The notes beneath the pieces were generated by a model, which was given only the letters and a program-made list of their open reading frames with translations, searched no databases and had not been told where the DNA came from. A stretch of 64,000 bases of DNA from an uncultured Alphaproteobacteria bacterium. GTDB taxonomy: Bacteria; Pseudomonadota; Alphaproteobacteria; HIMB59; GCA-002718135. The translations under genes were made by a program, and so were the position numbers. The stretch lies in the NCBI GenBank assembly GCA_902571865.1, contig CACGDO010000005.1, positions 1,486-65,485 of the forward strand. Reading direction: 5' to 3'. Positions 40,649 to 59,221 of the stretch are shown in pieces. How positions within the stretch are numbered: position 1 is the stretch's first letter; every line of letters starts with the position of its first letter.

Positions 40649-41539
40649 ATGAAAATTGGTATTGATGTAGGTGGTACCAAAACTGAGGGTATTCTTTTAG
40701 ATCCAAATGGAATTGAAATAGATAGAAAAAGAATTAATACTGAAAAAAGTTATGATGGAACAATTAAGGGAATACTGTCCATTATAAAACATTTTGAAGA
40801 TAAACACGGCAAAGCAGAAACTGTTGGTATGGGAATGCCAGGAGCCATATCAAATGATACAGCTTTAATTAAAAATGCCAATTCTATATGGTTAAACGGC
40901 AAACCTTTTAAGCAAGATTTAGATAAAATTCTAAATAGAAATGTGAATTTGGAAAATGATGCTAATTGTTTTACTCTTTCTGAAGCAGTAGATGGAGCTG
41001 GTAAAGGGTTTGAAGTTGTTTTCGGTGTTATTATAGGAACTGGTGTAGGCGGTGGTATCAGTATCAATCAAAAAGTTATAAGAGGTCGTAATAGCATAAG
41101 TGGAGAATGGGGACATATAGTTTTGCCTAGCAGAACAGAAGATGAAAAAAAATATGTTAAAAAATGTTATTGTGGAAAAGATGGGTGCTTAGAAACCTAT
41201 ATATCTGGACCAGGGTTTTCATCTGTTTATAATTTACGTTTCAATAAAAATTATAATTCACATCAAATATTAGATGGTTATAATAATAAAGAAAAAGATA
41301 GTATCTTTGCACTAAATCAATATGTCGATCATTTAGCAAGAGGATTGTCTTTAGTTTGTAATATTCTTGATCCAGATGTGATAGTTTTGGGTGGAGGTAT
41401 GTCAAACATCGATTTTATTTATGAAAATATAAATGATGCTCTAAAAAAATATGTTTTTACAGATACGCTTCACACAAAAGTTGTAAAAAATATTCATGGT
41501 GATTCAAGTGGCGTAAGAGGAGCTGCTTGGCTTTCTTAA
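40649..41539 (+). CDS. ROK-family sugar kinase (fructokinase Mak-like)
   Basis: GIDVGGTK, ENDANCF, GTGVGGG, GEWGH, CYCGKDGCLE zinc motif. Confidence 0.9.
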   Translation: MKIGIDVGGTKTEGILLDPNGIEIDRKRINTEKSYDGTIKGILSIIKHFEDKHGKAETVGMGMPGAISNDTALIKNANSIWLNGKPFKQDLDKILNRNVNLENDANCFTLSEAVDGAGKGFEVVFGVIIGTGVGGGISINQKVIRGRNSISGEWGHIVLPSRTEDEKKYVKKCYCGKDGCLETYISGPGFSSVYNLRFNKNYNSHQILDGYNNKEKDSIFALNQYVDHLARGLSLVCNILDPDVIVLGGGMSNIDFIYENINDALKKYVFTDTLHTKVVKNIHGDSSGVRGAAWLS

Positions 41540-42987
41540 ATACCACCCATTGAAATATATTTTATAGTTAAATAGTCATCAAGGCCATAACGAGAACCTT
41601 CTCTTCCCATTCCTGATTCTTTTACACCTCCAAAAGGCACTTCTGCAATTGTTGGTAGTCCATTATTGATAGATACAATCCCATATTCAAGTGCTTCAGC
41701 TACTCTCCAAATTCTTCCTATGTCTCTTGAATAGAAATATGAAGCTAATCCATATGGTGTATCATTAGCCATTTTAATCACCTCATCATCACTAGAAAAT
41801 TTATAAAGAGGTGCAACAGGTCCAAATGTTTCTTCAAAAGTTATTTTTGCCTTTGTAGATACATTTGAGAGAACAGTTGGTTGATAGAAATTACCACCAA
41901 GCGAATGCACATCTCCACCAATTGCTATTTTAGCTCCGGTATTTACTGCATCTTGAACATGATCAATTACTTTTTCTAAAGAGGATTGATCAATTAAAGG
42001 ACCAGATACAATTCCATCTTCAAGTCCATTACCCACTGTTATTTTACTGACTTCATTTGTAAATTTTTCTAGGAATTCATCATAAATATTTTCATGGACA
42101 AAAATTCTATTTGAACAAATACATGTTTGACCACTATTTCTAAATTTACTTTGAAGTGCGCCTGCAACAGCTTCATCCATATCTGCATCATCGAAAACAA
42201 TAAAGGGTGCATGACCACCAAGTTCCATAGAAACTTTTTTTACTGTTGAGGCACTTTGCTCTAAAAGTATTTTTCCAACCTCCGTAGATCCTGTAAAAGA
42301 AATTTTTCTTACAATTGGGTTACTTGTTAGCTCTTTACCAATCTCACTTGCCGATCCAGTGATTACATTAAATACACCATCTGGAAAACCAGCTTCTTTA
42401 GCAAGCACTGCTACAGCTAGTGCTGAATAGGGTGTTTGGCTTGCTGGTTTAACAACAGTAGTACAACCAACAGCTAGAGCGGCTGCACATTTTCTTGTGA
42501 TCATTGAATTTGGAAAATTCCATGGAGTTATTGCTCCCACAACACCAACAGGTTGTTTAATTATTACAATTCTTTTTCCAGGTCTTGGATCAGGAACTAT
42601 ATCACCATACACTCTTTTTGCTTCTTCAGCATAGAACTCAATGTAAGAAGCACCCATTAGTATTTCACCCTTTGCTTCAGCTAGAGGTTTACCTTGCTCA
42701 ATAGTCATTATTTTAGCTAAATCATCTGCATTTTCTGTAATTAACTCACCCCATTTTTTAAGAATAACTGATCTTTCTTTCGCAGTAGTTTCTTTCCAGG
42801 TTTGGAAAGCAGTATTGGCATCATCTACAGCTTTTTTAGTTTCTGAAATTGAGCATTTTGGGACGTTGCCAATAATTTCAAGAGAGGCTGGATTATTTAC
42901 CTCAAGAGTTTCACCTGAAGAACTGTTAACCCATTCCCCATTTATAAAACATTTTTGTTTAAAGAGTGATTTGTTATTTAATTCCAT
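41536..42987 (-). CDS. gabD: NAD(P)-dependent succinate-semialdehyde dehydrogenase family (GabD/Ssd-like)
   Basis: ITPWNFP, FTGSTEVGK, ELGG, GQTCIC, EETFGP, PFGGVKESGMGREG. Confidence 0.85.
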   Translation of the reverse strand: MELNNKSLFKQKCFINGEWVNSSSGETLEVNNPASLEIIGNVPKCSISETKKAVDDANTAFQTWKETTAKERSVILKKWGELITENADDLAKIMTIEQGKPLAEAKGEILMGASYIEFYAEEAKRVYGDIVPDPRPGKRIVIIKQPVGVVGAITPWNFPNSMITRKCAAALAVGCTTVVKPASQTPYSALAVAVLAKEAGFPDGVFNVITGSASEIGKELTSNPIVRKISFTGSTEVGKILLEQSASTVKKVSMELGGHAPFIVFDDADMDEAVAGALQSKFRNSGQTCICSNRIFVHENIYDEFLEKFTNEVSKITVGNGLEDGIVSGPLIDQSSLEKVIDHVQDAVNTGAKIAIGGDVHSLGGNFYQPTVLSNVSTKAKITFEETFGPVAPLYKFSSDDEVIKMANDTPYGLASYFYSRDIGRIWRVAEALEYGIVSINNGLPTIAEVPFGGVKESGMGREGSRYGLDDYLTIKYISMGGI

Positions 42988-43030: not shown

Positions 43031-44134
43031 ATGACAATAGTTAATTCTTGGAATGAATGGGATCCATTAAGACATGTTATAGTTGGAGCAGTTGAAAATG
43101 CCAACATACCTCCAATGGAACCGGCGCTTGAACCAAAAATAAGTAAAGATAGTGGTATGGCAGGATCTCACGGACCACGTTCACAGGAGTCAATTGATAA
43201 AGCAAATATACAATTAGAAAACTTTGTTAAAATATTAAATTCCCTAAATATAAAAGTTGATAGACCAACACCTATTGACTTTTCTCAGATTATCAAGACA
43301 CCCGATTGGTCTAATGATGGTATGTTTGGTTGTATGCCTCCAAGAGATGTTATTCTTACTGTAGGAAATGAAATGCTAGAGGCGCCAATGTCTTACAGAT
43401 GTAGATGGTTTGAGTACCTTGCTTATAGGCCACTACTTGAAAAATATTATTCAGAAGATAAAAATATGAGATGGGAGTCGGCACCTAAACCAAGATTAAC
43501 AAATCAATCTTATAAGTCTAATTATCTTCCTAAAGGTATAACGGAAGAAGAACGATATAAAAAAATCGAAAATAGAGACATGATATTGACTGAAAAAGAA
43601 CCACTTTTTGATGCAGCAGAAATTTTACGTTTTGGAAAAGATCTTTTTTATCATAACAATTTTACATCAAATTTAAGTGGTTTAGATTGGTTAAGAAGGC
43701 ATTATCCAAATCATCGTGTTCATCAAATTAATTTACCAGGTGATTTAATTCCAACTCACATTGATGCATGTTTTACTCCCATTAAACCAGGAGTTATAAT
43801 TATTAATCCGAATAGAAAAATATCATCAGAGCAAAGAAAAATTTTTGATGATAATAAATGGGAAATTCATGAAGCAGCACCTTCTATTCATAATAGTCCA
43901 CCACCTATGTGTTATTCATCAATCTGGTTGTCAATGAATGTTTTGATAATTGATCCTAAAACTATATGTGTCGAAGCAACAGAAGAAAAAATGATTAAAC
44001 AAATGGAAAGTTTTGGATTGGATGTTATTCCTGTTCCTTTTAGAGACGTTTATGCATTTGGGGGTAGTCTACATTGTGCCACAACTGATGTTCATAGAGA
44101 GGGTGAGTGTGAGGATTATTTTCCAAGTCAATAA
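43031..44134 (+). CDS. Amidinotransferase (pentein superfamily, AGAT/StrB1/SxtG-like)
   Basis: VNSWNEWDPL, PRD, FDAA (catalytic Asp), HID (His), GGSLHCAT (Cys nucleophile). Confidence 0.92.
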   Translation: MTIVNSWNEWDPLRHVIVGAVENANIPPMEPALEPKISKDSGMAGSHGPRSQESIDKANIQLENFVKILNSLNIKVDRPTPIDFSQIIKTPDWSNDGMFGCMPPRDVILTVGNEMLEAPMSYRCRWFEYLAYRPLLEKYYSEDKNMRWESAPKPRLTNQSYKSNYLPKGITEEERYKKIENRDMILTEKEPLFDAAEILRFGKDLFYHNNFTSNLSGLDWLRRHYPNHRVHQINLPGDLIPTHIDACFTPIKPGVIIINPNRKISSEQRKIFDDNKWEIHEAAPSIHNSPPPMCYSSIWLSMNVLIIDPKTICVEATEEKMIKQMESFGLDVIPVPFRDVYAFGGSLHCATTDVHREGECEDYFPSQ

Positions 44135-44889
44135 TGAATAGTTTTAATCAAAATAATTTTAAAGCCAATTTAAATGACACAAACTTTTCTAGAATTGGTA
44201 TAATTACACTATCAACGGATTTTACCATAGAGCAGGATTTTAGAAAAATTTGCCATAATTTACCAGTTGATCTATTTTTTAATAGGATACCTTTTTTAAA
44301 TCCTCTAACTCATGAAAATTATATGAGAATGGCTGATCATCTTACAGAAACAACAAACCAAATACTACCCAATGAAAAAATACAAGTTGTAGCGTATGGA
44401 TGTACTTCGGGTACTATTGAAATTGGTGAAAAAAGAATAAGATCTGAAATTTTCAAGGCTAAACCTGATGCTTTAATTACTACACCTATTACAGCAGCTG
44501 TCAAAGCACTTAAATTGTTAAACCATAAAAAAATTGCTGTCCTTACTCCTTATCCAAAAGATGTTAATGTTAAAGTTTACAAATATTTAATTGAAAGTGG
44601 ATTTGAAATTAAATCATTTAGTTCATTTAATTTAAATTATGATTCGGAAATTGCCAAAGTTACTCATGATAGTTTAATGCGAACAATTTCTTCAATTAAT
44701 TTAATAGATGTTGATAGTATTTTTGTATCTTGTACTGCATTAAAAGTAATTGATATTATCGAAACATTAGAGTCAAAATTAAGCACAGATATCATTTCAA
44801 GTAATCAAGCTATTATTTGGGATTCATTAAGATTATCTAATATTAATCAAAAAATTGATGGTTTTGGTAACCTATTTAAATTACATTAA
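44134..44889 (+). CDS. eutA: EutA-like Asp/Glu racemase-maleate isomerase family protein
   Basis: RIGIITLSTD, paired catalytic cysteines YGCTSG and VSCTAL, SSNQA; precedes eutB/eutC-like genes. Confidence 0.72.
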   Translation: MNSFNQNNFKANLNDTNFSRIGIITLSTDFTIEQDFRKICHNLPVDLFFNRIPFLNPLTHENYMRMADHLTETTNQILPNEKIQVVAYGCTSGTIEIGEKRIRSEIFKAKPDALITTPITAAVKALKLLNHKKIAVLTPYPKDVNVKVYKYLIESGFEIKSFSSFNLNYDSEIAKVTHDSLMRTISSINLIDVDSIFVSCTALKVIDIIETLESKLSTDIISSNQAIIWDSLRLSNINQKIDGFGNLFKLH

Positions 44890-44901
44890 ATAGGGTTTAA
44901 A

Positions 44902-45864
44902 TTGATTACACTTCAACAAATACAAGATGCACATAAGAAAATTTTACCTTATGTTAATTATACACCATTAATTAATTCTAATTTCTTATCAAAAAATACT
45001 ACAGTAAAACTAAAGTTAGAAAATTTTCAAATCACTGGTTCATTTAAGTTAAGAGGCGCTGTTAATAAACTTCTTTCTTTAAGTGAAGATGACAAAAACA
45101 AAGGAGTCATTGCAGTTTCTACAGGGAATCACGGCAAAGGCGTTGCTTATGCTTCAAAAGTATTGGGCATTCAATCAACAATATATATGTCTTCAATGGT
45201 TCCAGAATATAGAAAAGAGGCTATTCAAAAATTAGGGGCTAAAGTAGAAATTATTGGAAAGAATAGTGATGAAGCTGATTTGTATGCTAAACAAATTGCG
45301 AAAGAAAAAAATATCCCACTAATTCATCCTTTTGATGATGAAGATATTATAATAGGGCAAGGTACAGTTGGACTTGAAATGCTTACTGAATTTCCCGAAG
45401 TTGATACAGTAATTATACCAACATCTGGTGGCGGTCTTATATCTGGAATTGCTCAGGCTATTAAACTTCAAAAACCTAACACAAAAATTATTGCCGTATC
45501 TATGGAAAGAGGCCCCTCAATGTATGAAAGTCTAAAAGAAGGTAAGCCTGTTGATGTAGAGGAAACTGAAACTTTAGCTGATTGTTTAGGGGGTAGTATT
45601 GGTTTAGATAATAAATTTACATTTAATATTGTACAAAAATACGTTGATGACTTTGTTTTAGTAAGTGAAGAAAAAATAGCTGAGGGAATTAGAATAAACT
45701 TTTTAGAACATAAAATTGTATCTGAAGGTGCTGCAGCAACAAGTGTTATGGTTGTTAAAGAAAAATTAACATCGCACTTAGGAAAAAATATAATTTGTTT
45801 AATTTGTGGTGGAAATATTGACTCGGAACTATTTAATAAAGTTTTAAGCCATGCTCATCCTTAA
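44902..45864 (+). CDS. eutB: EutB-like PLP-dependent dehydratase (Ser/Thr dehydratase family)
   Basis: TTG start; TGSFKLRGA, STGNHG, GGGL, and the EutB-type LGGSIGLDN segment. Confidence 0.8.
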   Translation: MITLQQIQDAHKKILPYVNYTPLINSNFLSKNTTVKLKLENFQITGSFKLRGAVNKLLSLSEDDKNKGVIAVSTGNHGKGVAYASKVLGIQSTIYMSSMVPEYRKEAIQKLGAKVEIIGKNSDEADLYAKQIAKEKNIPLIHPFDDEDIIIGQGTVGLEMLTEFPEVDTVIIPTSGGGLISGIAQAIKLQKPNTKIIAVSMERGPSMYESLKEGKPVDVEETETLADCLGGSIGLDNKFTFNIVQKYVDDFVLVSEEKIAEGIRINFLEHKIVSEGAAATSVMVVKEKLTSHLGKNIICLICGGNIDSELFNKVLSHAHP

Positions 45865-46825
45865 TAAAAATGATATTATTCAACATGTAAATTTGAATAA
45901 AAATCTCATACCAATAATAGAGGAGGCTTTCATAAGTTTATCAAAGGGATTGGTAATGATGCCACCTATAATGAGAATTGATATTGAAAAATATCATGGT
46001 GAATCAGATGTTAAAGCTGCATACATTGAGGGTTTTGACAGTTTTGCAATAAAAATCGCTTCAGGTTTTTTTGATAATCCAAAACTTGGTTTGCCATCTA
46101 GTAATGGACTGATGGTTTTATTAGATTCAAAGACTGGAGTTGTAAAATCTGTTTTATTGGATGAAGGTTATCTTACAGATACTAGAACAGCTATAGCAGG
46201 AGCAATAGCTACAAAATATTTATCAAATCAAAATGCTAATTCTGTTGGTATTATCGGAGCTGGAATTCAAGCCAAATTACAACTTCAAGCAATAATGTTA
46301 GTTAGAAAAATAAAAAAAATAACAGTCTGGACAAGAGATGAGACAAAAGCAAACCAATTTATCGAAGGTTTTAAAGATTTAGATTTAGATTTGCATGTAG
46401 CTTCTTCTTGCAAGGAGTTGGCAAGCTTATCAGAAATAATCGTTACAACAACTCCTAGTAAAAAACCGCTTTTGCAATTTGATTGGATAATTAAAGGAAC
46501 TCACATAACAGCAATGGGATCAGATGCAGAACAAAAAAACGAATTAGATCCTCAGTTGTTAAAACATTGCGATCAATATGTACCTGACAATCAATTACAA
46601 ACAAGTGTTTTGGGTGAATTACATCATGCTTTAAAACAAAATATAATTTCTTCTAAAGAAAAATTTAATGAACTTGGCGATATTATTAACGATCCAAGCT
46701 TAGGAAGAAAAAATAAAGAAGATATAACAATATGTGATTTGACAGGAACTGGCGTACAAGATACTGCAATAGCAAGATTTGCTTATAATCTTTGTAAAAC
46801 AAATAATTTAGGCATCAATATTTAA
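45851..46825 (+). CDS. eutC: EutC-like ornithine cyclodeaminase/mu-crystallin family protein
   Basis: MPPIMRIDI..GESDVKAAY, GFFDNPKLGLPS.NG, GYLTDTRTA, DLTGTGVQD. Confidence 0.82.
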   Translation: MLILNKNDIIQHVNLNKNLIPIIEEAFISLSKGLVMMPPIMRIDIEKYHGESDVKAAYIEGFDSFAIKIASGFFDNPKLGLPSSNGLMVLLDSKTGVVKSVLLDEGYLTDTRTAIAGAIATKYLSNQNANSVGIIGAGIQAKLQLQAIMLVRKIKKITVWTRDETKANQFIEGFKDLDLDLHVASSCKELASLSEIIVTTTPSKKPLLQFDWIIKGTHITAMGSDAEQKNELDPQLLKHCDQYVPDNQLQTSVLGELHHALKQNIISSKEKFNELGDIINDPSLGRKNKEDITICDLTGTGVQDTAIARFAYNLCKTNNLGINI

Positions 46826-46828
46826 TTT

Positions 46829-48271
46829 ATGAGTCAAGCAATAATAAAAAAAACGTCTGATTACTTCAAATCAAAAGGAGTTGTCTTGCCAAGTATTAGT
46901 GAACTTCAAGACCCTCAAATTATTAATGATGATATTAAAAATTCTCTAAAAAAAATAAATAATAATGATATCAATCCTCTTAACCTCTTTAGAGTTCATT
47001 GGTTTAATAAAAGAGATCAATCAGGTTTTGGAAATGAGCCTGAATATATTGTGCTTCCAACAGAATTTACAGGTGTTAAGGCAAAGATAATTGTAAATAT
47101 GGGACGATATTTTCCCTTAATAACAGCTCATAAAGTTTTGGCAGCTTATGGTTGTTTGCTTCCAAGAATATTGAATGGTACTTTTGATTATGAAAAACAT
47201 AAAGCAGTTTGGCCTTCAACAGGAAATTATTGCCGGGGTGGAGTAGCAATATCTCGGATAATGGGTCTTAATAGTATTGCAATACTTCCTGAAGGAATGA
47301 GTAATGAGAGATTTGAATGGTTGAATAATTGGGTTGAAGATAAAAAAAATATCATAAAGACAAAAGGCACAGAAAGTAATGTTAAAGAAATTTACGATGC
47401 TTGTAATGAATTAAAAAAAGATAATCAAAATGATATCATAAATCAATTTGATGAGTATTATAACTATGGCATTCATCGTTCCGTAACCGGTCCATCTTTT
47501 GAAAAATCATTTCTTAAAGTTAAAGGTAACAGTAATTTAACTCCTAGGTTTTACGTAAGTGCTTCAGGATCAAGTGGTACTCTAGCAGCAGGAGATTATC
47601 TTAAAGATAAATTACAGACGAAGATTGCAGTTGTTGAAGCTTTGGAGTGCCCAACTTTGCTTCATGGCGGTTATGGTGAACATAATATACAAGGAATTGG
47701 TGACAAACATGTTCCCCTTATTCATAATGTAATGAATACAGATTTTGTCGTAGATGTCACTGATCAAGCTACCAATAATCTAAATATGATTTTTAATACT
47801 GAAATAGGAAAAAAGTTTTTAATTGAGAAAAAAAATTTTGAGCCTGATTTTGTTTCACGACTTCCTGAATTTGGCTTTTCAGCAATAGCAAATATATTGG
47901 CATCAATAAAACTAGCTAAATATATGGATTTAAATAGTGATGACGCAATTATAACGGTCGCTACAGATGGTGCAGATTTATACATGTCAGAATTAAATAA
48001 GACCATTGCTGATTTTAAAAATAATTATGATGAAATAGTTTGTGCTGAACTATTTGGAAAACACCTATCAGGAATATCTACTGATAATATGCTAGAACTT
48101 TCTTACCTGGACAAGAAAAGAATATTTAATTTAGGTTACTTTACTTGGGTAGAGCAACAAGGTGTAAGTCTTGAAGAATTTGAAAAAAGAAAAGATCAAA
48201 AATTTTGGAATTCACATTATGAATATATGCTTTCTCTAGACAATAAGATTAAAGAATTTAATAATATGTAG
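46829..48271 (+). CDS. Fold-type II PLP-dependent enzyme of unknown specificity (480 aa)
   Basis: AHKV (PLP Lys), WPSTGNY, SGSSGTL phosphate loop, HNIQGIG cysteine-synthase-like motif. Confidence 0.75.
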   Translation: MSQAIIKKTSDYFKSKGVVLPSISELQDPQIINDDIKNSLKKINNNDINPLNLFRVHWFNKRDQSGFGNEPEYIVLPTEFTGVKAKIIVNMGRYFPLITAHKVLAAYGCLLPRILNGTFDYEKHKAVWPSTGNYCRGGVAISRIMGLNSIAILPEGMSNERFEWLNNWVEDKKNIIKTKGTESNVKEIYDACNELKKDNQNDIINQFDEYYNYGIHRSVTGPSFEKSFLKVKGNSNLTPRFYVSASGSSGTLAAGDYLKDKLQTKIAVVEALECPTLLHGGYGEHNIQGIGDKHVPLIHNVMNTDFVVDVTDQATNNLNMIFNTEIGKKFLIEKKNFEPDFVSRLPEFGFSAIANILASIKLAKYMDLNSDDAIITVATDGADLYMSELNKTIADFKNNYDEIVCAELFGKHLSGISTDNMLELSYLDKKRIFNLGYFTWVEQQGVSLEEFEKRKDQKFWNSHYEYMLSLDNKIKEFNNM

Positions 48272-48274
48272 GTT

Positions 48275-49429
48275 ATGAAAACTCAGTCATTACATAACCA
48301 ATTAGTAGAATGGCGTCATGATCTTCATATGCACCCACAATTAAGTTTTGAAGAAGAGTATGCTGCAGCAAAAGTATCAACACTTCTAAAAGAATTTGGA
48401 ATAGAAGTTCATTCTGGTATTGCCAGAACTGGAGTAGTTGGAATTTTAAAAAAAGGAAATAGTTCAAATTCAATAGGTATAAGAGCTGACATGGATGCTC
48501 TTCCTATACATGAAACTAATAAGTTTAGTTATAAGTCCAAGTTTGATAACAGAATGCATGCATGTGGACATGATGGTCACACAACAATGTTATTAGGTGC
48601 AGCAAAATATTTATCAGAAAAAGGTAACTTTAACGGTACGGTATATTTTATTTTTCAACCTGATGAAGAGAATACATTTGGTGCAAGAACAATGATAGAT
48701 GAAGGATTGTTTGATAAATTTAACATTGATGAAGTTTACGCTATGCACAATATTCCTAACATGGAAATTGGAACATTTGGTACAAGAAATGGAGCTATTA
48801 CAGCCAGTGAAAATTTATTTGAAATTGAAATAAAAACTAAAGGTGGGCACGCTGCATTACCTCATATGGGGGTAGATGCAATAACTGTTGGTTCTCAAAT
48901 AGCTGTAGCACTTCAATCGATAGTGTCTAGGAAATTAAATCCAGCAGACAATGGTATAGTGTCTATTACTGAATTTATAACCGATGGTAAAAAAAATGTT
49001 CTGCCAGGTATGGTAAAAATGACTGGTGACGCGAGAGCTTTATCAAAAGAAACAAATGAAAAAATTGCTTCAAAAATGTTACAAATTGTCGAAGGGATTT
49101 GCAATGCACATGGTGTTAATGGTAGTGTTAAATATGAAACAGCCTGTCCTGTAACTTTTAATTCAAAAAATCAAACTGAGTCTGCAACAAAAGCTGCAGT
49201 TTCTTTACTTGGTAATGATAAATGTAATGGTAATATAGAACCTCGTTTATTCTCAGAAGATTTTTCTGTTATGGCAAATGAAAAACCTGGCTGCTTTGTT
49301 TTAATGGGTAACGGAACATCAGAGCAGCATTCCAGACCTTTACATGCTGATAATTATGATTTTAATGACGAATTATTAGTCATAGGTTCTTCATATTGGA
49401 CTGAATTGGTAGAACAACAATTAAAATAA
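48275..49429 (+). CDS. M20D-family amidohydrolase (hippurate hydrolase-like)
   Basis: IRADMDALP, MHACGHDGH, FQPDEE, GGHAA.PH, SEDF, LH. Confidence 0.9.
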   Translation: MKTQSLHNQLVEWRHDLHMHPQLSFEEEYAAAKVSTLLKEFGIEVHSGIARTGVVGILKKGNSSNSIGIRADMDALPIHETNKFSYKSKFDNRMHACGHDGHTTMLLGAAKYLSEKGNFNGTVYFIFQPDEENTFGARTMIDEGLFDKFNIDEVYAMHNIPNMEIGTFGTRNGAITASENLFEIEIKTKGGHAALPHMGVDAITVGSQIAVALQSIVSRKLNPADNGIVSITEFITDGKKNVLPGMVKMTGDARALSKETNEKIASKMLQIVEGICNAHGVNGSVKYETACPVTFNSKNQTESATKAAVSLLGNDKCNGNIEPRLFSEDFSVMANEKPGCFVLMGNGTSEQHSRPLHADNYDFNDELLVIGSSYWTELVEQQLK

Positions 49430-50587
49430 ATGTTTTCTGAAAACTTAAATAAACTAAAGAAAAAAATGTCTGAGAACAATATTGATCTCTCAATTATAAC
49501 TGATGATGACTCGATATATTATTTCACAGGATACCATGACTTCCTTCATATGGATTTTTATCGACCAACATTATTAGTTGTTTCAAATGATCATAAAACT
49601 TATTTAATTACACCTCTTCTTGATGTTTTATTAGTACCAGAATCTTGTCCTGTAGATATGGTTGAAACATGGAATGATGGTATTGGAAATGAATGGAGAG
49701 AATTATTACCTCAAATCATCAATCAGCATAAAAATATTTTTATTGAAAAATTTAAAATTAACCCAATGGTTAAGAGTTATTTAGACGAATTACTTAAAGA
49801 CCATCCTGGGGATTTAACCAAATTAATAGATAATATAAGAATGATTAAATCTAATCATGAATTGAATATAGCTCGTCATGCCGGCGAAGTTGGTATGGCT
49901 ATGATGGAGGCAGCAAAAAAAACAATTGGCCATAATGTTCCTGAGTATGAGGTTGCACTTGCACAATCACAAGCTGGAACAAGAAAAGCTGCAGATCTTT
50001 TAAAAGAATTTTATCCTGATAATATCAATATGTCTCCAAATATTCACTTTTTACCTGTTATGACATCGGGTCATGATTTACCTAAAACTCACCATCGTGC
50101 TTCAACCAAAATTATAAAAAAAGGTGATCCAGTATTCGTATGTTATTGTGGTTCTACAAATTTCCATAGGTTTAAATTAGGTTTTGACAGAATATTTTGG
50201 GTAGAAGAAATTCAATCCGATGAACAAATAAAAGCTTTTGAGACTGCAGTTAAATCTCAAAAAGCTGCTCTTGAAATTCTTGGCCCTGGAGTAACAGCTG
50301 AAGAAGTTCATGCTGCTTATGCAGATACTATACAGTCTGAGGGATACCCTTATCCTACATTTCGATGTGGAAGAGGTACAGGCTTTAGCTTTTTAGAGGA
50401 ACCACAATTAGTAGTTGGTAATAAAACAGTACTGGAGCCTGGAATGGTATTTGCCGTTGATGGCGGGGCAAGTGCAAATAATTTTAGATCACAAGTTGGT
50501 GATAGTTTTATTATAACAGAAGAAGGATACGAACAAATAACACATCATTCTAAAAATATTGATGATCTAATAATTCCACATGGATGA
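49430..50587 (+). CDS. M24 pita-bread-fold hydrolase, metal-independent (creatinase/ectoine-hydrolase-like)
   Basis: Creatinase-type N-domain (YFTGY), R.IKS..E linker, C-domain lacking the usual D/D/H/E/E metal ligands. Confidence 0.75.
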   Translation: MFSENLNKLKKKMSENNIDLSIITDDDSIYYFTGYHDFLHMDFYRPTLLVVSNDHKTYLITPLLDVLLVPESCPVDMVETWNDGIGNEWRELLPQIINQHKNIFIEKFKINPMVKSYLDELLKDHPGDLTKLIDNIRMIKSNHELNIARHAGEVGMAMMEAAKKTIGHNVPEYEVALAQSQAGTRKAADLLKEFYPDNINMSPNIHFLPVMTSGHDLPKTHHRASTKIIKKGDPVFVCYCGSTNFHRFKLGFDRIFWVEEIQSDEQIKAFETAVKSQKAALEILGPGVTAEEVHAAYADTIQSEGYPYPTFRCGRGTGFSFLEEPQLVVGNKTVLEPGMVFAVDGGASANNFRSQVGDSFIITEEGYEQITHHSKNIDDLIIPHG

Positions 50588-51605
50588 AATCACAGTATTT
50601 AACACACATTGCTGTGGTGAAATTGGGGATGTTGTAACTGGAATTAAAGGCTTGAATTTTAAATCACCTGAAGAAGCTTCTAAAAAACTTTTTTTAGATA
50701 AAAAATGGAGAAATTTTTTTCTAAATGAACCTCGAGGAGGGGTCTTTAAACATTGTAATATTATTTTAGAACCTTCAAATAAAAATGCAGATGCTGGATT
50801 TGTAATTATGGAACCAGAAGATAATCCTCCAATGAGTGGGTCAAATGCAATTTGTGTAACGACAGTCTTATTAGAAAAAAATATTGTTCAAATGAAATAT
50901 CCTAAAACCATGCTTACACTTGAAGCTCCAGGTGGTTTAATAAAAGTTGTTGCTGATTGTGAAAATAAGAAAGTTAAAAGTGTCACTTTAACTAATCTTG
51001 CCTGCTTTGCAGATAAAATAGATGTAGATTTAAAGACTAAAAATTATGGTACAATTAAAGTAAGTACTGCTTTTGGAGGTGACAGTTTTTTAATTTGTAA
51101 TGCTAGTGATTTTAATCTTAAAATTGAACCAAAGAATGCAAATAAATTTGTAAATGTTGCAAAAGAATTATTAAAAGAAGCAAACGCATCTATAGGATTT
51201 GAGCATCCTACTATTAATGGATTAGACTATCTTTCCTTTTGCCAATTTATTGAACCCTTAAAAAAAAATAATCAATCATTACTTACAGGATTAAATACAG
51301 TTGTTATACGACCTGGGAAACTTGATCGTTCACCTTGCGGCACAGGCACTTCAGCAAGATTAGCAGTAATGAAAGAAAAAAATGAAATACAAATAAATGA
51401 AGAATTTATATCAAAGTCTATTATAGGATCTTCATTTAACGCAAGTATTGAAAAGGAAATTAAAATTAATAACAAAAATTGTATTATTCCAAAAATAACA
51501 GGTAGTGCATTTATTACTGGAAAACAAAGTTTATATATCGATAAGGATGATCCTTTTCCAGAAGGTTATAGATTAAATGACACATGGCCAGATTCATTAA
51601 GTTAA
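50580..51605 (+). CDS. Proline racemase superfamily enzyme (Ser/Cys active-site pair)
   Basis: EPRGG, PMSGSNAIC, DRSPCGTGTSA, ITGSA. Confidence 0.88.
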   Translation: MDEITVFNTHCCGEIGDVVTGIKGLNFKSPEEASKKLFLDKKWRNFFLNEPRGGVFKHCNIILEPSNKNADAGFVIMEPEDNPPMSGSNAICVTTVLLEKNIVQMKYPKTMLTLEAPGGLIKVVADCENKKVKSVTLTNLACFADKIDVDLKTKNYGTIKVSTAFGGDSFLICNASDFNLKIEPKNANKFVNVAKELLKEANASIGFEHPTINGLDYLSFCQFIEPLKKNNQSLLTGLNTVVIRPGKLDRSPCGTGTSARLAVMKEKNEIQINEEFISKSIIGSSFNASIEKEIKINNKNCIIPKITGSAFITGKQSLYIDKDDPFPEGYRLNDTWPDSLS

Positions 51606-51681
51606 CTGTGATTAAATAACACTAGTATGGCGAGTTAATTTATTTTACTTTCATCAACTATTCTAATAATTAATAAAACAA

Positions 51682-52947
51682 ATGACAAAATTTAATGCCT
51701 GGAATGTAATTAAAAACGGTTTAAATGGTCAGTCTTATTGGACTAGACAATGGCGTGATCCAGAACCAAAAAGTAGTTATGACGTTGTAATAATTGGGGG
51801 AGGTTTGCACGGTCTTGCCACAGCATATTATTTAGCAAAGAATCATAATATAAAAAATGTAGCTGTCTTAGAAAAAGGCTGGATTGGTGGAGGAAACGCT
51901 GGACGTAATACCACTATTGTAAGATCAAATTATATGATGCCAGGCAACCACGAATTTTATGAACATTCTTTAAAGTTATGGGAAAATTTAAGTCACGAAT
52001 TAAATTATAATGTAATGTTTAGCCAACGAGCTCATGTCTCGTTATTTCATAGCCCTGGTGCTAAAGATTCAGTTTCACGGATTTATAATATTATGCGACT
52101 CCACGGAACTGATGCAGAACTTTGGGATTTAAAAACTTTAAAGAAAAAAATTCCGCATTTAAATTATCATAATTCTAGATTTCCAATACTTGGAGCTGCA
52201 GTTCAAAAAAGAGCAGGCAATGCAAGACACGATGCAGTTGCATGGGGTTATGCAAGGGCTGCAGATACATTAGGTGTAGACATTTTGCAAAATTGTGAAG
52301 TTACAGGTTTTACAAGAAAGAATGGAAATATTGAAAGTATTCAAACTTCAAGAGGAATTATAAAAGGAAAGAAAATAGGATTTGCTGTTGCAGGTAATAC
52401 TTCAGTATTATGGCAAATGGCAGAATTAGGCAACCTGCCAATTGAGTCTCATAAACTACAAGCATTTGTATCTGAGGCTGTTAAGCCACTCCTAGATCAG
52501 GTTGTTGTTTACGGTGTAGGTGGTGCACATTTCTATATATCGCAGTCAGACAAAGGAAGTATGGTGTTTGGTGGTGATCTTGACTGGTATAAATCATATG
52601 CTCAAAGAGGAAATCTTCCTATGGTTCAAGATGTTGCTGAAGCGGCCATGGCAATATTTCCTTCACTTGGGAGAATAAGATTACTTCGTCATTGGGCAGG
52701 TGTTATGGACATGACAATGGACGGATCATTTTTTATTTGTAAAACACCGATATCTAATCTCTATTTAAATGCTGGTTGGAACTATGGGGGTTTTAAAGCA
52801 AGTCCAGCATCAGGTTGGTATTTTGCCGACTTAATTGCAAATGAAAGCCCGCATAACTACGTGCAAAATCATAATTTAGAAAGATTTGAAAAAGGTATCA
52901 ATATAGATGAACGTGGTGCAGGACCTGATCCGAAATTGCACGGTTAA
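51682..52947 (+). CDS. soxB: Heterotetrameric sarcosine oxidase family beta subunit
   Basis: GGGLHG, GRNTTIVRSNY, ARHDAVAW, GWNYGGFKA. Confidence 0.9.
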   Translation: MTKFNAWNVIKNGLNGQSYWTRQWRDPEPKSSYDVVIIGGGLHGLATAYYLAKNHNIKNVAVLEKGWIGGGNAGRNTTIVRSNYMMPGNHEFYEHSLKLWENLSHELNYNVMFSQRAHVSLFHSPGAKDSVSRIYNIMRLHGTDAELWDLKTLKKKIPHLNYHNSRFPILGAAVQKRAGNARHDAVAWGYARAADTLGVDILQNCEVTGFTRKNGNIESIQTSRGIIKGKKIGFAVAGNTSVLWQMAELGNLPIESHKLQAFVSEAVKPLLDQVVVYGVGGAHFYISQSDKGSMVFGGDLDWYKSYAQRGNLPMVQDVAEAAMAIFPSLGRIRLLRHWAGVMDMTMDGSFFICKTPISNLYLNAGWNYGGFKASPASGWYFADLIANESPHNYVQNHNLERFEKGINIDERGAGPDPKLHG

Positions 52948-53232
52948 ATGATTAGAATTAATTGTCCTTATTGTGGTGAAAGAGATCATAGTGAATTTAG
53001 TTATGGAGGAGATGCAACAATCAATTATCCTTCGTTAGATGCATCAGAGAAAGAATGGACTGAAGCTATATTTTTCAGAAAAAATATAAAAGGTTTTCAA
53101 TTTGAAACATGGCATCATTCTAATGGATGTAGAATGTGGTTGGTAGTTGAACGTTCTACTGTCACTCATGAAATAAAAAGTGTCAAACCATCCCATCCGG
53201 ATTTACAGAAGATTGTAGAAAATAATAAATGA
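52948..53232 (+). CDS. soxD: Sarcosine oxidase family delta subunit
   Basis: CPYCG.R...EF.YGG, WHHSNGC zinc ligands. Confidence 0.92.
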   Translation: MIRINCPYCGERDHSEFSYGGDATINYPSLDASEKEWTEAIFFRKNIKGFQFETWHHSNGCRMWLVVERSTVTHEIKSVKPSHPDLQKIVENNK

Positions 53233-56186
53233 AGACAAGAAGAATAGATAACTATGGAAAAATTAATAGAGATAAAATTTTATCCTTTAGGTGGGATAAA
53301 AAAAATTACAAAGGTTTTGAAGGAGATACTCTAGCATCAGCATTACTTGCAAATAATATTGGTATAGTTGGTAGAAGTTTTAAATATCATAGACCAAGGG
53401 GAATATTTTCTAGTGGAGTCGAGGAGTCCGGTGCTTTAGTTACTATTGGTTCAAAAGATAGAAGAGATCCAAATGTAAGAGCAACAACGCAAGAATTATA
53501 TAATGGTTTGGAAGCAAGTGGTCAAAATGCATTTCCAAATGTAAATTTTGATCTAGCTGGAATAAATAATTACTTAGGTAGGTTTTTTGCAGCTGGTTTT
53601 TATTATAAAACTTTTATGGGAATACCTCCACTTGAATGGGGTAAAGGAACAGCCATATGGATGTTTTTTGAAAAGTTTATTAGAAAAGCTGCGGGAATGG
53701 GAAGTGCTTCTGGGTTACCTGATCCAGATACTTATGAGCATGCTCATGATTTTTGTGATTTAATTGTTGTAGGATCAGGACCTGCTGGTGTTGCAGCTGC
53801 AATAGAGGCAGCAGAAAAAAAATTAGATGTTATTTTAGTTGAGCAAGATAGTCTTATTGGAGGAAATCAACTTGCAGAAAATGATTTTGATAACTCACAA
53901 ATTAAAAATCAACTTGAAAATCTAGGCATAAAAATAATGACTAGAACTACTGCATTCGGATTATATGATAATTGTGTTGTTGGTTTATTAGAGAGAGTAA
54001 CAGACCATATATCAGCATCAAATGTAAACATTCCACGCCAAAGATTTTGGACCATTAGAGCAAAGCATATAATTGTTGGTGCTGGAGCAATTGAAAGACA
54101 CATTGCATTTAATAATAATGATATTCCTGGTGTAATGACCGTAAATGCATCAAAGCATTATTTGAATAGATATGGTGTACTCACCGGAAAAAGAATTGTG
54201 ATAGCTACAAATAATGATTCTGTTTATGAAACAGCACATCAATTATCAGAAGCTGGGGCCAATGTAACTGTTCTTGATTCACGAACTAATTTTGAAATTG
54301 AGACAAATAAAAGTTTTGAAATAAGAAAAGGGTATGTACCTTATAATATTAATGGTTCAAAAAAAATTAATAGTTTAGATATATCAAAAAGTGTAACTAT
54401 TAATAAATCTGAAACTATAAATTGTGATCAGGTTCTATTATCAGGTGGCTGGTCACCTGCTGTACATTTGTTATCTCACAGAGGCGTAAAGCCTAAATGG
54501 GATTATAACAATGCTTGTTTTTTACCAAGTGACACAAAAGAAAATATTACAATGGTAGGTTCTTCTAGAGGTTTATGGAATAAAAATGATTGTATTGCTT
54601 CTGGGATAGCAGGAACTACTGATGCGTTGAACCGTTTAGGTATTTCTAAAACAAATTATTTTTTCCCAAAACCTGGTGGATGGAAAAATCCCATACAACC
54701 ACTTTATGAAGTAAAATATAAAAAATCTAGATCAAAAAGTTTTGTAGATTATCAACATGATGTAACAACAGATGACGTAAGACTCGCACATCGTGAAGGT
54801 TTCATTTCGGTAGAGCATCTTAAAAGATACACAACTTTAGGTATGGCAAACGATCAAGGAAAAATGGGAAATATCATTGGATTGTCTTTAATGGCAGAAC
54901 TTTTAAATAAAGAAATTTCAGAAGTTGGAACTACTGTTTTTAGACCTCCTTATACTCCTGTATCTATAGGTGCCTTAAGCGGAAGAAATGTTGGAAAACA
55001 TTTTAGGCCGTTAAGAGTAACGCCAATGCATCAATGGAATATTGATCATGGTGCAAAAATGATTGAAGTTGGATTGTATCAAAGACCTTGGTATTATCCC
55101 AAAGAAAATGAAACTTTAAGTGACTCTTATATAAGAGAAGCATCAACAGTAAGAAAAACAGTTGGAATTTGTGATGTAACATCATTAGGCAAAATAGCTA
55201 TTCAAGGACCAGACTCTACCGAATTTTTAAATAGAATTTATTCGAATGGTTTTTCAAAACTACAAGTTGGAAAAGCTAGATACGGTATCATGTTACGTGA
55301 TGACGGTATTGTAATGGATGATGGCACATCTTGGAGATTAGCAGAAAATGAATATTTTATGACGACGTCTACAGGTGAAGCTGCAAAAGTGATGTCATGG
55401 TTAGAAGAATTACTTCAAACTAGATGGACAGATCTTAATGTTAATGTGACTAGTGTTTCTGAACAATGGGCAGGCGTATCAATTGCAGGACCTAAATCTA
55501 GAGAAGTTCTCAATAATTGTGTCGATGATTCTTTGGTTATAACTAATAATAACTTACCTTTTATGGGTGTTACTTCAACATTTCTTAAAGGTAATATTCC
55601 TTGTAGGATTGCAAGAATTAGTTTTTCCGGCGAATTAGCTTTTGAAGTTTATGTCAAATCAGATTTTGCCAATACAATGATGGACTTACTTTGGGAAAAT
55701 GCAAAAAAATATGATGGATGTTTATATGGATTAGAAGCTTTAGGTGCGCTTAGAGTTGAAAAAGGTCATGTAACAGCTGCTGAGCTTGATGGGAGGGTAA
55801 CAATTGATGATGCAGGTTTAAGCAAAATGGCATCTACAAAAAAATCATATATTGGAAGCGCAATGAGAAAACGAGGAGTTTTAAAAAATAATGATCGTGA
55901 AATTCTAGTAGGCTTCTTTCCTACAAATCTAAAAGAAACTTTTAATGCTGGAACTATTGTGTGTGAAAAAAATAATATTAAAGGACAGGGTATCGGAAGA
56001 ATCACCTCAGTCACTTATTCTCCAGAACTTGGACATTGGATTGGAATAGGTTTTGTAAAAGGTGGTTTAGATAAATGGAAAGATACCACTTTAGTAGGCG
56101 CAGACCCTGTAAGAAATAAACAAATGAATTTAAAAGTTGTTTCACCACATATGATTGATCCTAAAGGAGAACGAATGTATGCATAG
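53229..56186 (+). CDS. soxA: Sarcosine oxidase family alpha subunit (NAD-binding plus GcvT-like folate domain)
   Basis: GDTLASAL, FKYHRPRG, GSGPAG, KRYTTLGMA.DQGK, RISFSGELAFE. Confidence 0.92.
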   Translation: MKTRRIDNYGKINRDKILSFRWDKKNYKGFEGDTLASALLANNIGIVGRSFKYHRPRGIFSSGVEESGALVTIGSKDRRDPNVRATTQELYNGLEASGQNAFPNVNFDLAGINNYLGRFFAAGFYYKTFMGIPPLEWGKGTAIWMFFEKFIRKAAGMGSASGLPDPDTYEHAHDFCDLIVVGSGPAGVAAAIEAAEKKLDVILVEQDSLIGGNQLAENDFDNSQIKNQLENLGIKIMTRTTAFGLYDNCVVGLLERVTDHISASNVNIPRQRFWTIRAKHIIVGAGAIERHIAFNNNDIPGVMTVNASKHYLNRYGVLTGKRIVIATNNDSVYETAHQLSEAGANVTVLDSRTNFEIETNKSFEIRKGYVPYNINGSKKINSLDISKSVTINKSETINCDQVLLSGGWSPAVHLLSHRGVKPKWDYNNACFLPSDTKENITMVGSSRGLWNKNDCIASGIAGTTDALNRLGISKTNYFFPKPGGWKNPIQPLYEVKYKKSRSKSFVDYQHDVTTDDVRLAHREGFISVEHLKRYTTLGMANDQGKMGNIIGLSLMAELLNKEISEVGTTVFRPPYTPVSIGALSGRNVGKHFRPLRVTPMHQWNIDHGAKMIEVGLYQRPWYYPKENETLSDSYIREASTVRKTVGICDVTSLGKIAIQGPDSTEFLNRIYSNGFSKLQVGKARYGIMLRDDGIVMDDGTSWRLAENEYFMTTSTGEAAKVMSWLEELLQTRWTDLNVNVTSVSEQWAGVSIAGPKSREVLNNCVDDSLVITNNNLPFMGVTSTFLKGNIPCRIARISFSGELAFEVYVKSDFANTMMDLLWENAKKYDGCLYGLEALGALRVEKGHVTAAELDGRVTIDDAGLSKMASTKKSYIGSAMRKRGVLKNNDREILVGFFPTNLKETFNAGTIVCEKNNIKGQGIGRITSVTYSPELGHWIGIGFVKGGLDKWKDTTLVGADPVRNKQMNLKVVSPHMIDPKGERMYA

Positions 56187-56742
56187 ACATTCTGCACTAG
56201 AAACAATTTATAAGGTTGGAAAATATTCATCAAGCGAGAAACAATCTCTAACATTTAAAGAATTAAAAAGTTTAGAAATTTTGCAAATTGCTTGTTGGCC
56301 TGACAAAATTGATGAAATGAATAATTTAATATCAAAAGAACTAAAAATTAAAAATATTCCTAGTTTTAATAAAGGGATAATTTTTGAAAATAAATCATTA
56401 TGGAGAATGGAACCTTTGAAATGGTGGCTATTTAATAAAGAAATTGAAATAAGTGAGCAAATCGCAACAATTTTAGACATGTCTCATGCTTTTACAGGTA
56501 TTGAAATTACAGGAGATAATTCATCATTATTTTTAAATAGACATCTTCCAATTGATTTAAGAGCTAGGAATTTTCCAGATCTATCTTCTGCTAGCACAGC
56601 TATTCATCATGTCAGTGTTAAGCTATTTAAAATAACTTCCAATAACTACTGTCTATATATACCAAGAGGTTTTGCTTTATCAATTTGGGAGATCCTTCTT
56701 GAAACAGCGGATCAGTTTGGATACGAAGTATTAGAGAGATAG
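56179..56742 (+). CDS. soxG: Sarcosine oxidase family gamma subunit
   Basis: Position after soxA with 8-nt overlap; DMSHA...I.ITG, PIDL, RGFA..IW..L. Confidence 0.8.
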   Translation: MHRHSALETIYKVGKYSSSEKQSLTFKELKSLEILQIACWPDKIDEMNNLISKELKIKNIPSFNKGIIFENKSLWRMEPLKWWLFNKEIEISEQIATILDMSHAFTGIEITGDNSSLFLNRHLPIDLRARNFPDLSSASTAIHHVSVKLFKITSNNYCLYIPRGFALSIWEILLETADQFGYEVLER

Positions 56743-57497: not shown

Positions 57498-57502
57498 AGA
57501 TA

Positions 57503-59167: not shown

Positions 59168-59221
59168 TTATTAAATATCTGTAGTTAATTTTGGTTTTTT
59201 CATTAATAGAAGTATTAATCT

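Follow-up and report, generated by a model that had tools for sequence, protein, structure and literature searches.

Several described systems offer points of comparison for the locus analysed here. SbnA/SbnB and CmnB/CmnK are pairs of a CysK-like and an OCD-family enzyme, and ectoine-type solutes give the four-carbon 2,4-diaminobutyrate. In the SbnA/SbnB system, L-2,3-diaminopropionate (DAP) is made from O-phosphoserine and glutamate. The canonical ectoine and hydroxyectoine clusters (eutABCDE-ssd-atf or doeABCD), in the descriptions consulted, include no CysK-like enzyme, and EutABC has been proposed to act on hydroxy-DABA (PMC13188858). The reductive uric-acid pathway yields albizziin and DAP (PMC12507026, PMC12990295); the characterised SsnA/XDH/carbamoyltransferase clusters of the E. 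coli and C. difficile type lead to these compounds (PMC12507026), and a CysK-like enzyme is not mentioned in either of the two accounts of uricolysis. YgeX/DpaL, which together with YgeY belongs to this pathway (PMC12507026), is a fold-type II PLP enzyme.

The gene studied here encodes a protein with the same general fold, termed PLP480. It occupies positions 46829..48271 on the forward strand of the window, the whole stretch of 64,000 nucleotides that was analysed, and runs from an ATG start through 480 codons to a stop codon, which is included in these coordinates. The original prediction had described this reading frame correctly, and the four motifs that it listed (AHKV, STGNY, SGSSGT and IQGIG) are all present in the translation. 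In an AlphaFold (AF2) model with a pLDDT of 95, the core superposes on CysK, beta-cyanoalanine synthase and cystathionine beta-synthase (CBS) with a TM of ~0.8 by target and a Foldseek probability of 1.00. The superposition leaves ~75 N-terminal and ~85 C-terminal residues unmatched, and from these ends it follows that the predicted excess of about 150 residues over cysteine synthase, with extensions on both sides, was right. The N-terminal extension (about residues 1-75, 46829..47053) is helical, with P21, P29, L53 and W58 invariant in family alignments. The C-terminal extension (about residues 395-480, 48011..48268) is helical in the model and carries the conserved residues W440, W460 and D471. 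Neither extension had a PDB match in the Foldseek and profile searches, and sequence, profile and structure searches found nothing in the PDB nearer to PLP480 than CysK.

The predicted active site, all on the forward strand, was placed by alignment of the family profile to CysK. The predicted Schiff-base lysine, K102 (codon 47132..47134), lies in the AHKV motif (residues 100-103) and pairs with the lysine of SVKDR in cysteine synthase crystal structures; its conservation in the family alignments is 90% or more, and the surrounding HKVLAA was nearly invariant in the 71 relatives compared. The PSTGN(Y) segment (about residues 129-133, 47213..47227) pairs with the (P)TSGN(T) loop of CysK and is the putative 'asparagine' loop for the substrate alpha-carboxylate; when the relatives' loops were compared, WPSTGNY(C/A)RG was invariant in all four context types. 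The predicted PLP phosphate-binding loop, (S)GSSGT (about residues 245-251, 47567..47581), pairs with GTGGT of CysK and is likewise conserved among the relatives. IQGIG (residues 287-291) runs into the family-specific D292-K293-H294-VPLI-H299-N300 loop at the predicted active-site entrance (together 47687..47728), and the CysK counterpart of this stretch is IQGIGAGF(I/V)P. In the 71 relatives HNIQGIGDKH(V/I)PLIHN was invariant in all four genomic contexts, and judging from the alignment the D292-K293-H294 loop may have a role in leaving-group handling. GFSAIAN pairs with GISSGAN of CysK, which puts S351 (codon 47879..47881; at least 90% conserved) at the GISSGA serine, where it is predicted to hydrogen-bond to the pyridine nitrogen of PLP. 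Q206 and the H216/T220-G221 motif also align with CysK.

PLP480 therefore shares with the CysK/CBS/beta-cyanoalanine synthase clade a two-domain fold and aligned catalytic motifs. The Schiff-base lysine stands at the start of the first core helix, there are two alpha/beta PALP domains, and a Gly-rich phosphate loop and a serine for the pyridine nitrogen are in place; the Pfam PALP score is 32.1 bits, under the gathering score of 35. The protein is an intact fold-type II enzyme, as had been proposed, with PLP binding predicted from its residues. Chance can be excluded because the family is conserved and the frame stays open over 480 codons in DNA of 31% G+C. Beta-elimination or beta-replacement is the chemistry expected for this clade. 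In contrast to CysK, with which it is 20-26% identical, PLP480 has AHKV for SxKDR and GIGDKHVPLIHN for GIGAGF(I/V)P, bears extensions that are conserved family-wide, and sits in a catabolic operon.

The curated families gave low scores. The best NCBIfam match was cysK (TIGR01139) at 72.2 bits against a cut-off of 351, followed by 69.6 against 344 for TIGR01136 and 26.3 against 394 for TIGR01138. A plain CysK/CysM cysteine synthase was rejected on these scores, on TAHKV in place of SxKDR, and on a length of 480 residues with extensions compared to ~300-330. CBS (TIGR01137) was rejected at 24.6 against 510 bits and on extensions that lack a PDB match, and threonine synthase was ruled out on curated scores. 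No model of DAP ammonia-lyase (TIGR01747, TIGR03528, NF006058) was among the PLP480 matches at E <= 0.01; the best match to the DpaL models in genome G000 was the eutB-like gene described below, with 82 bits against a cut-off of 276.

PLP480 had been called an orphan, and this description fails. Searches returned at least 8000 significant, near-full-length marine matches, and among the matches listed most are 480-482 residues long; few uncharacterised PLP enzymes of alphaproteobacteria in the surface ocean are thus recovered more often than PLP480. Of 50 genomes sampled from its own family, 46 carry the gene (0 of 50 in the sister family), and relatives 49-56% identical to it occur in the genomes of at least 597 species from many other phyla. 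In the ESM Atlas fold search the architecture of residues 1-480 recurs at a TM of 0.97 in clusters of Actinomycetota and Bacillota, and two family alignments have both extensions throughout. We define the long CysK-like family as proteins of ~460-510 residues that carry the two extensions together with the loops HKVLAA, WPSTGNY(C/A)RG and HNIQGIGDKH(V/I)PLIHN; the alignments, the 71-relative loop comparison and the Atlas fold match place PLP480 within it. The Atlas language-model and fold searches with PLP480 returned unnamed clusters only, and no characterised member was found in the literature on SAR11/ectoine, AEGEAN-169/HIMB59, eut genes, Pelagibacter/diaminobutyrate and ygeX/ygeW/ssnA. 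The family, whose proteins are about 480-510 residues in length, is a large, widespread and uncharacterised branch of the cysteine-synthase group, whose members carry the database name 'cysteine synthase', and assigning its reaction would annotate thousands of such mislabelled entries.

The PLP480 gene lies in a forward-strand operon with the order AGAT-eutA-eutB-eutC-PLP480-M20-M24-(ProRac)-soxBDAG, which is conserved across genera in the window's lineage. The first gene (43031..44134) encodes an AGAT-type amidinotransferase (E 6e-77 to human L-arginine:glycine amidinotransferase, 1jdx) and is syntenic in L012-L015. It is followed at 44134..46825 by eutA-like (Asp/Glu-racemase superfamily), eutB-like (Thr-dehydratase-like PLP) and eutC-like (OCD family) genes, recognised by NCBIfam and arranged with gaps or overlaps of at most 14 nt. 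These scored 212 bits on EutA, 379 bits on EutB and 409-453 bits on the EutC/cyclodeaminase models, the 453 bits on cyclodeaminase PRK08291 being above cut-off. PLP480 is separated by 3 nt from its neighbour on either side. An M20 amidohydrolase (DoeB2/CpsA-like) and an M24 creatinase/prolidase-fold hydrolase come next (48275..50587; upstream gaps of 3 nt and 0 nt), and then a proline-racemase-family protein resembling trans-3-hydroxyproline dehydratase and soxBDAG (50580..56742; domain and NCBIfam matches, synteny). A GabD/Ssd-type aldehyde dehydrogenase (41536..42987, reverse strand; TIGR01780, 727 bits, above cut-off) is divergent from the operon and syntenic in L012 and L015.

Four more loci, in other genomes from the same family, show this gene order at 60-86% identity, and four genomes without PLP480 also lack the eutC-like gene. 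In this abundant ocean bacterium PLP480 is a fixed member of the operon. An Ehu-like amino-acid ABC transporter stands directly upstream of the PLP480 homologue in L014, L027 and L031, and in L014 it lies inside the operon. The window resembles the canonical ectoine clusters in its EutA/B/C-like proteins, M24 protein, deacylase and Ssd-type dehydrogenase, and their Ehu-like transporter is matched in a sister genome. The operon probably serves to bring dissolved nitrogen-rich solutes into central metabolism, and a reaction for PLP480 would help to name the substrate of this SAR11-type island.

The surroundings of relatives in other lineages were counted in 77 loci with a tblastn matrix, which was chosen because the ORF calling of a first count had missed 22 of 80 target genes in high-G+C loci. 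A second PALP protein, threonine-synthase-like, was near the family gene in 49 of the 77 loci, and of the 58 loci with callable genes, 27 have it as the next gene downstream. Also nearby were XDH-family proteins (21 loci), SsnA (17), carbamoyltransferases (12) and carbamate kinase (10, and a Cloacimonadota locus), enzyme types that belong to the reductive uric-acid pathway. DpaL was near the gene in 8 loci and was nearly mutually exclusive with the ThrC-like partner. Three alphaproteobacterial loci (L027, L031, L044) have EutA-like, DoeB2-like M20, M24 and soxB genes in common with the window, together with DpaL. In five genomes with clusters of the SsnA/XDH/carbamoyltransferase type, neither YgeX/DpaL nor YgeY was above the curated cut-offs assembly-wide; these are MAGs of unstated completeness. 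With its active site unchanged, the family turns up repeatedly in versions of the recently solved reductive uric-acid pathway from which the last two known enzymes are missing, and a reaction assignment would fill a gap in the purine catabolism of habitats other than the gut. Because the family occupies such clusters in genomes without YgeX and YgeY, it may do the same job by converting albizziin or DAP to pyruvate. PLP480 differs from YgeX/DpaL in belonging to another clade of the fold, true DpaL co-occurs with the family in Alphaproteobacteria, and the window has neither SsnA nor XDH.

The invariance of the active-site loops over four types of context argues for one conserved chemistry. Our leading reading, to which we give a probability of about 0.4, is that PLP480 works in catabolism, carrying out beta-elimination or beta-replacement on a beta-N-substituted alanine of the DAP or albizziin type; more generally, it probably takes a nitrogen-bearing side group off a small amino acid. 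On this reading the gene is translationally coupled within a catabolic operon for a nitrogen-rich, ectoine-like solute in a SAR11-type marine alphaproteobacterium. The M24 hydrolase would open a ring and the M20 hydrolase would deacylate the product, which would release an alpha-amino acid that PLP480 takes as an external aldimine on K102. Removal of the alpha-proton would expel the beta-substituent, and the resulting aminoacrylate would leave as a 2-oxo acid and ammonia or be trapped by a nucleophile. The likeliest substrates would be DAP or a derivative of it with a carbamoyl or amidino group, such as albizziin, because the active site does not vary in relatives sited where such compounds are predicted to arise. 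Also in favour of this substrate class is a RidA gene on a Bosea plasmid, two genes downstream of the homologue and beyond an IS481 transposase. Gene, fold, PLP-binding residues, family and the conserved operon are observed features of the locus, and from them and the relatives we infer which way the reaction runs, on what substrate and with what leaving group.

The role resembling DAP ammonia-lyase that had been predicted fares unevenly. Relatives do adjoin DpaL or SsnA/XDH/carbamoyltransferase clusters, and this circumstantial support comes from them and not from the window operon: DpaL, ThrC-like, SsnA and XDH genes are all missing from the operon, and genome G000 has no DpaL above cut-off, so the DAP-type link is transferred from relatives at ~50% identity. 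None of the window genes is known to make a three-carbon diamino acid. A plain DpaL equivalent is unlikely, since PLP480 matches no DpaL model and the family co-occurs with DpaL, and this co-occurrence means that the family could equally well act on another substrate. Some contexts have no obvious link to DAP, namely the loci with a CoA-transferase and a luciferase-like oxidoreductase (~10), the aldehyde dehydrogenase that directly follows the PLP480 homologue in G025, and two rhizobial plasmids with TauE/SafE. A broader proposal, which we regard as tentative, is that the long CysK-like family is an unrecognised lyase for beta-N-substituted alanines that takes urea, ammonia or guanidine off albizziin-type compounds. 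With a second fold-II PLP partner, the enzyme would stand in for YgeY and YgeX at the end of the reductive purine pathway across many aerobic phyla of soil and sea, and in SAR11-type bacteria it would allow the ocean's most abundant heterotrophs to draw nitrogen from a diamino-acid-derived solute.

A rival reading, which on the whole we consider unlikely, gives PLP480 a four-carbon substrate. M24 would open the ring of (hydroxy)ectoine, M20 would deacetylate the product, and PLP480 would then act on 3-hydroxy-2,4-diaminobutyrate by beta-elimination of water or on 2,4-diaminobutyrate by gamma-elimination; it would fill the slot of the DABA transaminase (Atf/DoeD) and feed the divergent aldehyde dehydrogenase or central metabolism. 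Consistent with this are the EutA-, EutB- and EutC-like proteins, the DoeB2-like M20 and the M24 protein in the operon, the Ehu-like transporter in the L014 operon, the divergent Ssd and the aldehyde dehydrogenase after the G025 homologue, the action proposed for EutABC, and the lack of canonical EutD, EhuB or Dat above cut-off in genome G000; NCBIfam equivalogs of EutD, EutE and Atf were likewise not found here. However, transamination or aldehyde formation is not known for the CysK clade of fold-type II enzymes, EutB already supplies beta-hydroxy dehydratase chemistry, and any of five class-III aminotransferase loci elsewhere in G000 could fill the missing step. Moreover, dozens of genomes that lack a eut-like gene in the neighbourhood have the identical active site, and G025 keeps eutB-eutC-M24-M20 together without PLP480.

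Two further readings start from the nearest known enzymes. A biosynthetic role was part of the original prediction: PLP480 would join activated serine to an amine and, with the OCD-family enzyme, form DAP for guanidinylation by the amidinotransferase. A CysK-like gene does directly follow an OCD-family gene, as in SbnA/SbnB and CmnB/CmnK, the operon has an intact AGAT-type enzyme, beta-replacement by an amine nucleophile is within the repertoire of the clade, and a link to DAP chemistry may be shared. The SbnA/SbnB pair was nevertheless rejected, and this reading is very improbable: PLP480 scores 23.9 bits on SbnA (TIGR03945; cut-off 350), its neighbour 105 on SbnB (TIGR03944; cut-off 327), and that partner is of the EutC type in a catabolic context. 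The adjacency is not conserved, with six kilobases between the two genes in L014; the rest of the operon encodes hydrolases, an oxidase and an aldehyde dehydrogenase, the vicinity of PLP480 has no genes for siderophores, NRPS or export, and the relatives sit with uptake transporters and the DAP-degrading DpaL. Sulfur handling is less improbable than this but still quite doubtful. As a beta-lyase or synthase of this kind, PLP480 would be a divergent cysteine synthase, a lyase for cysteate or S-alkylcysteine (sulfoxide), or an enzyme of sulfide or methanethiol salvage, any of which would serve a lineage reliant on reduced sulfur. The database name fits, as do the nearest crystallised or curated relatives (cysteine synthases, beta-cyanoalanine synthase, S-methylcysteine synthase and CBS) and a BisC-type S/N-oxide reductase, encoded after the gene in L027 and L044 and within the operon in L014. 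Against it stand the low cysK score and a much nearer CysK/CysM-like gene elsewhere in genome G000 (265 bits), the lack of any sulfur-metabolism gene in the window operon by Pfam and NCBIfam searches, and enzymes of nitrogen compounds as the family's dominant neighbours. A sulfonate link through TauE/SafE, a sulfite-exporter-family gene, was set aside except as a weak rival, since it appears on two rhizobial plasmids only, adjoining the homologue in Rhizobium sp. NXC24 and near it in Bosea, and in 0 of 89 other loci.

The open reading frame of PLP480, the 480-aa fold-type II PLP enzyme, lies at window positions 46829-48271 on the forward strand, and has an ATG start and 480 codons. The four motifs named in the original prediction were all found in its translation at the positions claimed: AHKV (residues 100-103), STGNY (129-133), SGSSGT (245-250) and IQGIG (287-291). 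The Pfam PALP model scored 32.1 bits, which is below the gathering score of 35, and the top NCBIfam model, cysK, gave 72 bits where its cut-off requires 351. A sequence search of the PDB placed cysteine synthases at the top (E 7e-13), and the match improved to E 3e-37 when a profile from 30 family members was used. In the profile alignment, K102 falls on the Schiff-base lysine position of CysK, PSTGN on its carboxylate-binding TSGNT loop, GSSGT on its phosphate loop, and S351 on the serine contacting the pyridine nitrogen. The AlphaFold model based on the same alignment had a mean pLDDT of 95. Foldseek matched its core to CysK, beta-cyanoalanine synthase and CBS (probability 1.00, TM ~0.8 by target, 20-26% identity), and approximately 75 N-terminal and 85 C-terminal residues were left without a match. 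The alignment of catalytic residues and the CysK/CBS core thus confirm the fold-type II assignment, and the unmatched termini bear out the predicted extra length relative to cysteine synthase. An 80-aa antisense ORF within the gene (window 47764-48006, reverse strand) is most likely spurious.

PLP480 is a real, intact and highly conserved enzyme, and the earlier label of 'orphan' does not hold. The first homology search returned at least 8000 significant matches; among the matches listed, most were 480-482 aa long and came from marine metagenomes and single-cell genomes. The gene was present in 46 of 50 sampled genomes of the window's own family and in none of 50 from the sister family. Relatives beyond this lineage were also sought. 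A search without a word index detected them over their full length, with identities of 30-52%, in Cloacimonadota, Planctomycetota, a metamonad eukaryote and other organisms. When one genome of each species was scanned, relatives sharing 49-56% identity turned up in at least 597 genomes, including those of Actinomycetota, Chloroflexota, Acidobacteriota, Myxococcota and Gemmatimonadota, and the alphaproteobacterial Hoeflea, Xanthobacter and Rhodobacteraceae. The whole architecture, both extensions included, matched predicted structures from Actinomycetota and Bacillota clusters with a TM of 0.97; none of these clusters carried an informative name, and no published description of any member of this long CysK-like family was found in a literature search. 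In one genome of the window's own genus (G091:C1:86998-88438), the gene was recovered in two parts whose matches overlap, one covering residues 1-199 and the other 193-480, and each was reported with one TAA stop; this could reflect a pseudogene or an assembly error.

PLP480 is the fifth gene of an operon, 3 nt after an EutC-like OCD-family gene (45851-46825) and 3 nt before an M20 amidohydrolase gene of the DoeB2/CpsA-like type. The preceding genes encode an AGAT-type amidinotransferase (E 6e-77 to human AGAT), an EutA-like protein and an EutB-like protein; those following the M20 gene encode an M24 hydrolase (prolidase/creatinase/DoeA-like) and a proline-racemase-family protein (50580-51605). 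The operon is followed after 76 nt by soxBDAG, and a GabD/Ssd-type aldehyde dehydrogenase gene is divergent. None of the three genes 3' of soxG (window 56817-60208) had an NCBIfam family. The proline-racemase-family protein is closest to trans-3-hydroxyproline dehydratase; the trans-3-hydroxy-L-proline dehydratase model gave it 417 bits, with a cut-off of 550. Together with the EutC-like protein, this racemase-family protein mirrors the known T3LHyp dehydratase/pyrroline-2-carboxylate reductase pair. 5-Hydroxyectoine is a cyclic beta-hydroxy imino acid, and by analogy this pair could dehydroxylate it to ectoine. EutB is the only other fold-type II PLP enzyme in the window and also the best DpaL-model match in the genome, where no canonical EutD, EhuB or Dat equivalog scored above cut-offs.

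Four more loci, all in other genomes of this family, have the identical gene order (60-86% protein identity), and in four own-family members PLP480 and the eutC-like gene are both missing. In a variant locus (L014:3854-9777, genome G047), eutC is separated from PLP480 by an insertion that encodes a BisC-type molybdoenzyme and the ATPase, SBP_bac_3 binding protein and permease of an Ehu-like ABC transporter, and PLP480 comes directly after the transporter genes. The 764-aa molybdopterin oxidoreductase is 44% identical to the BisC-family reductase of a Rhodobacteraceae locus (L044); there and in Hoeflea (L027), the BisC-type gene immediately follows PLP490, the family member of these loci. In one genus of the same family (G025; L011:9532-14975 and L020:8474-12731), PLP480 (65% identical) is detached from the operon and is followed by genes for a 460-aa aldehyde dehydrogenase, a DUF2878 protein and a xanthine/uracil-family permease. 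This genome keeps a separate eutB-eutC-M24-M20 operon, whose M20 protein scored above cut-off as a YgeY-type enzyme (329 bits).

Seventy-seven loci from other lineages were compared by tblastn with reference proteins and by clustering of called neighbours, and the family recurred in four contexts, the window's own operon being counted as context IV. In context I (approximately 49 loci), a second, threonine-synthase-like (ThrC-like) PALP protein is encoded near the long CysK-like gene, immediately downstream in 27 of 58 loci with callable genes, often with XDH-family molybdoenzymes (21), SsnA-type aminohydrolases (17), carbamoyltransferases (12) and carbamate kinase (10). Context II (approximately 10 loci) has a CoA-transferase pair and a luciferase-like oxidoreductase. 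In these loci (L007, L055, L065, L067-L069, L072, L076, L082 and L095), the A/B pair and the oxidoreductase, probably F420- or FMN-dependent, lie downstream and the ThrC-like partner is absent; F420 biosynthesis genes lie upstream in L007. Context III, in alphaproteobacterial loci L027, L031 and L044, combines an Ehu-like ABC transporter, PLP490, a true DpaL (above cut-off), a DoeB2-like M20 protein, an M24 hydrolase, an EutA-like protein, a BisC-type reductase and soxBD(A). Near the family, DpaL and a ThrC-like protein almost exclude one another: by tblastn, seven of eight DpaL loci lacked a ThrC-like gene.

Overall identity within the family is only about 50%, yet the predicted active-site loops show little or no variation across the four contexts: HKVLAA, WPSTGNY(C/A)RG, NQF, H..(V/C)TG, GS(A/S)GT, HNIQGIGDKH(V/I)PLIHN, G(F/L)S(S/A)I(A/C)N and TVATDG. 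Such invariance argues that one reaction is carried out throughout the family, and that its substrate is everywhere a single small alpha-amino acid or a close analogue of it. The retained carboxylate loop and PLP ligands and the CysK/CBS fold, a clade whose chemistry is well established, suggest that the enzyme catalyses alpha,beta-elimination or beta-replacement and that its alpha-amino acid substrate carries a heteroatom substituent at the beta position. A DKH segment stands at the active-site entrance where CysK has AGF after GIG, and judging from the alignment it may bind or protonate the leaving group.

The enzymes gathered in context I correspond to those of the reductive uric-acid pathway. 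In this pathway, solved in 2025, XdhD, YgfK, SsnA and HyuA lead to 2,3-diureidopropionate, YgeW or UacY converts this to albizziin, and YgeY and YgeX take albizziin through 2,3-diaminopropionate (DAP) to pyruvate (PMC12507026, PMC12990295). In five actinomycetotal and chloroflexotal genomes (G101-G105; L042, L048, L063, L073 and L037), SsnA, XDH and carbamoyltransferase genes cluster with a pair formed by PLP500, the long CysK-like protein of these genomes, and the ThrC-like protein, both genes lying inside the cluster; neither YgeX/DpaL nor YgeY was found above curated cut-offs anywhere in these assemblies. These clusters are possibly an unrecognised variant of the end of the pathway. PLP480 gains interest because its family is large and widespread, and through this newly seen tie to uricolytic clusters lacking YgeX and YgeY.

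Because contexts I and III are DAP-linked and YgeY/YgeX are apparently replaced, the best-supported substrate class is a beta-N-substituted alanine (DAP, albizziin or an amidino analogue), to which we assign a probability of roughly 0.4. A RidA gene near the Bosea plasmid homologue fits an enzyme that releases aminoacrylate. Against this substrate class, no product of the window operon is known to make a diamino acid of three carbons, and context II and the detached G025 gene show no clear DAP link. The main alternative, which we consider rather unlikely, is that PLP480 belongs to an ectoine/hydroxyectoine scheme, in which it would take the place of the missing transaminase and use hydroxy-DABA or DABA (2,4-diaminobutyrate) as substrate.

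It is more doubtful still that PLP480 is a lyase or synthase of sulfur compounds, as its closest known relatives, the BisC genes near the family and TauE on two plasmids might suggest. These conjugative plasmids, from Rhizobium sp. NXC24 and Bosea vaviloviae, carry homologues that are 47-50% identical (L102:10741-13419 and L101:12070-21236). Adjacent to the homologues or close by are genes for a TauE/SafE sulfite-exporter-family protein, an M20 peptidase and an amino-acid ABC transporter, and a TPP-binding enzyme and a gamma-glutamyltransferase are also encoded near the Bosea copy. However, TauE was not found in the other loci compared, and the window's genome has a much closer CysK-like gene elsewhere. 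The original prediction had also offered an SbnA/SbnB-type route of DAP biosynthesis; this appears very improbable, as neither protein reaches the cut-off of its curated model and the route does not fit the catabolic neighbours of PLP480.
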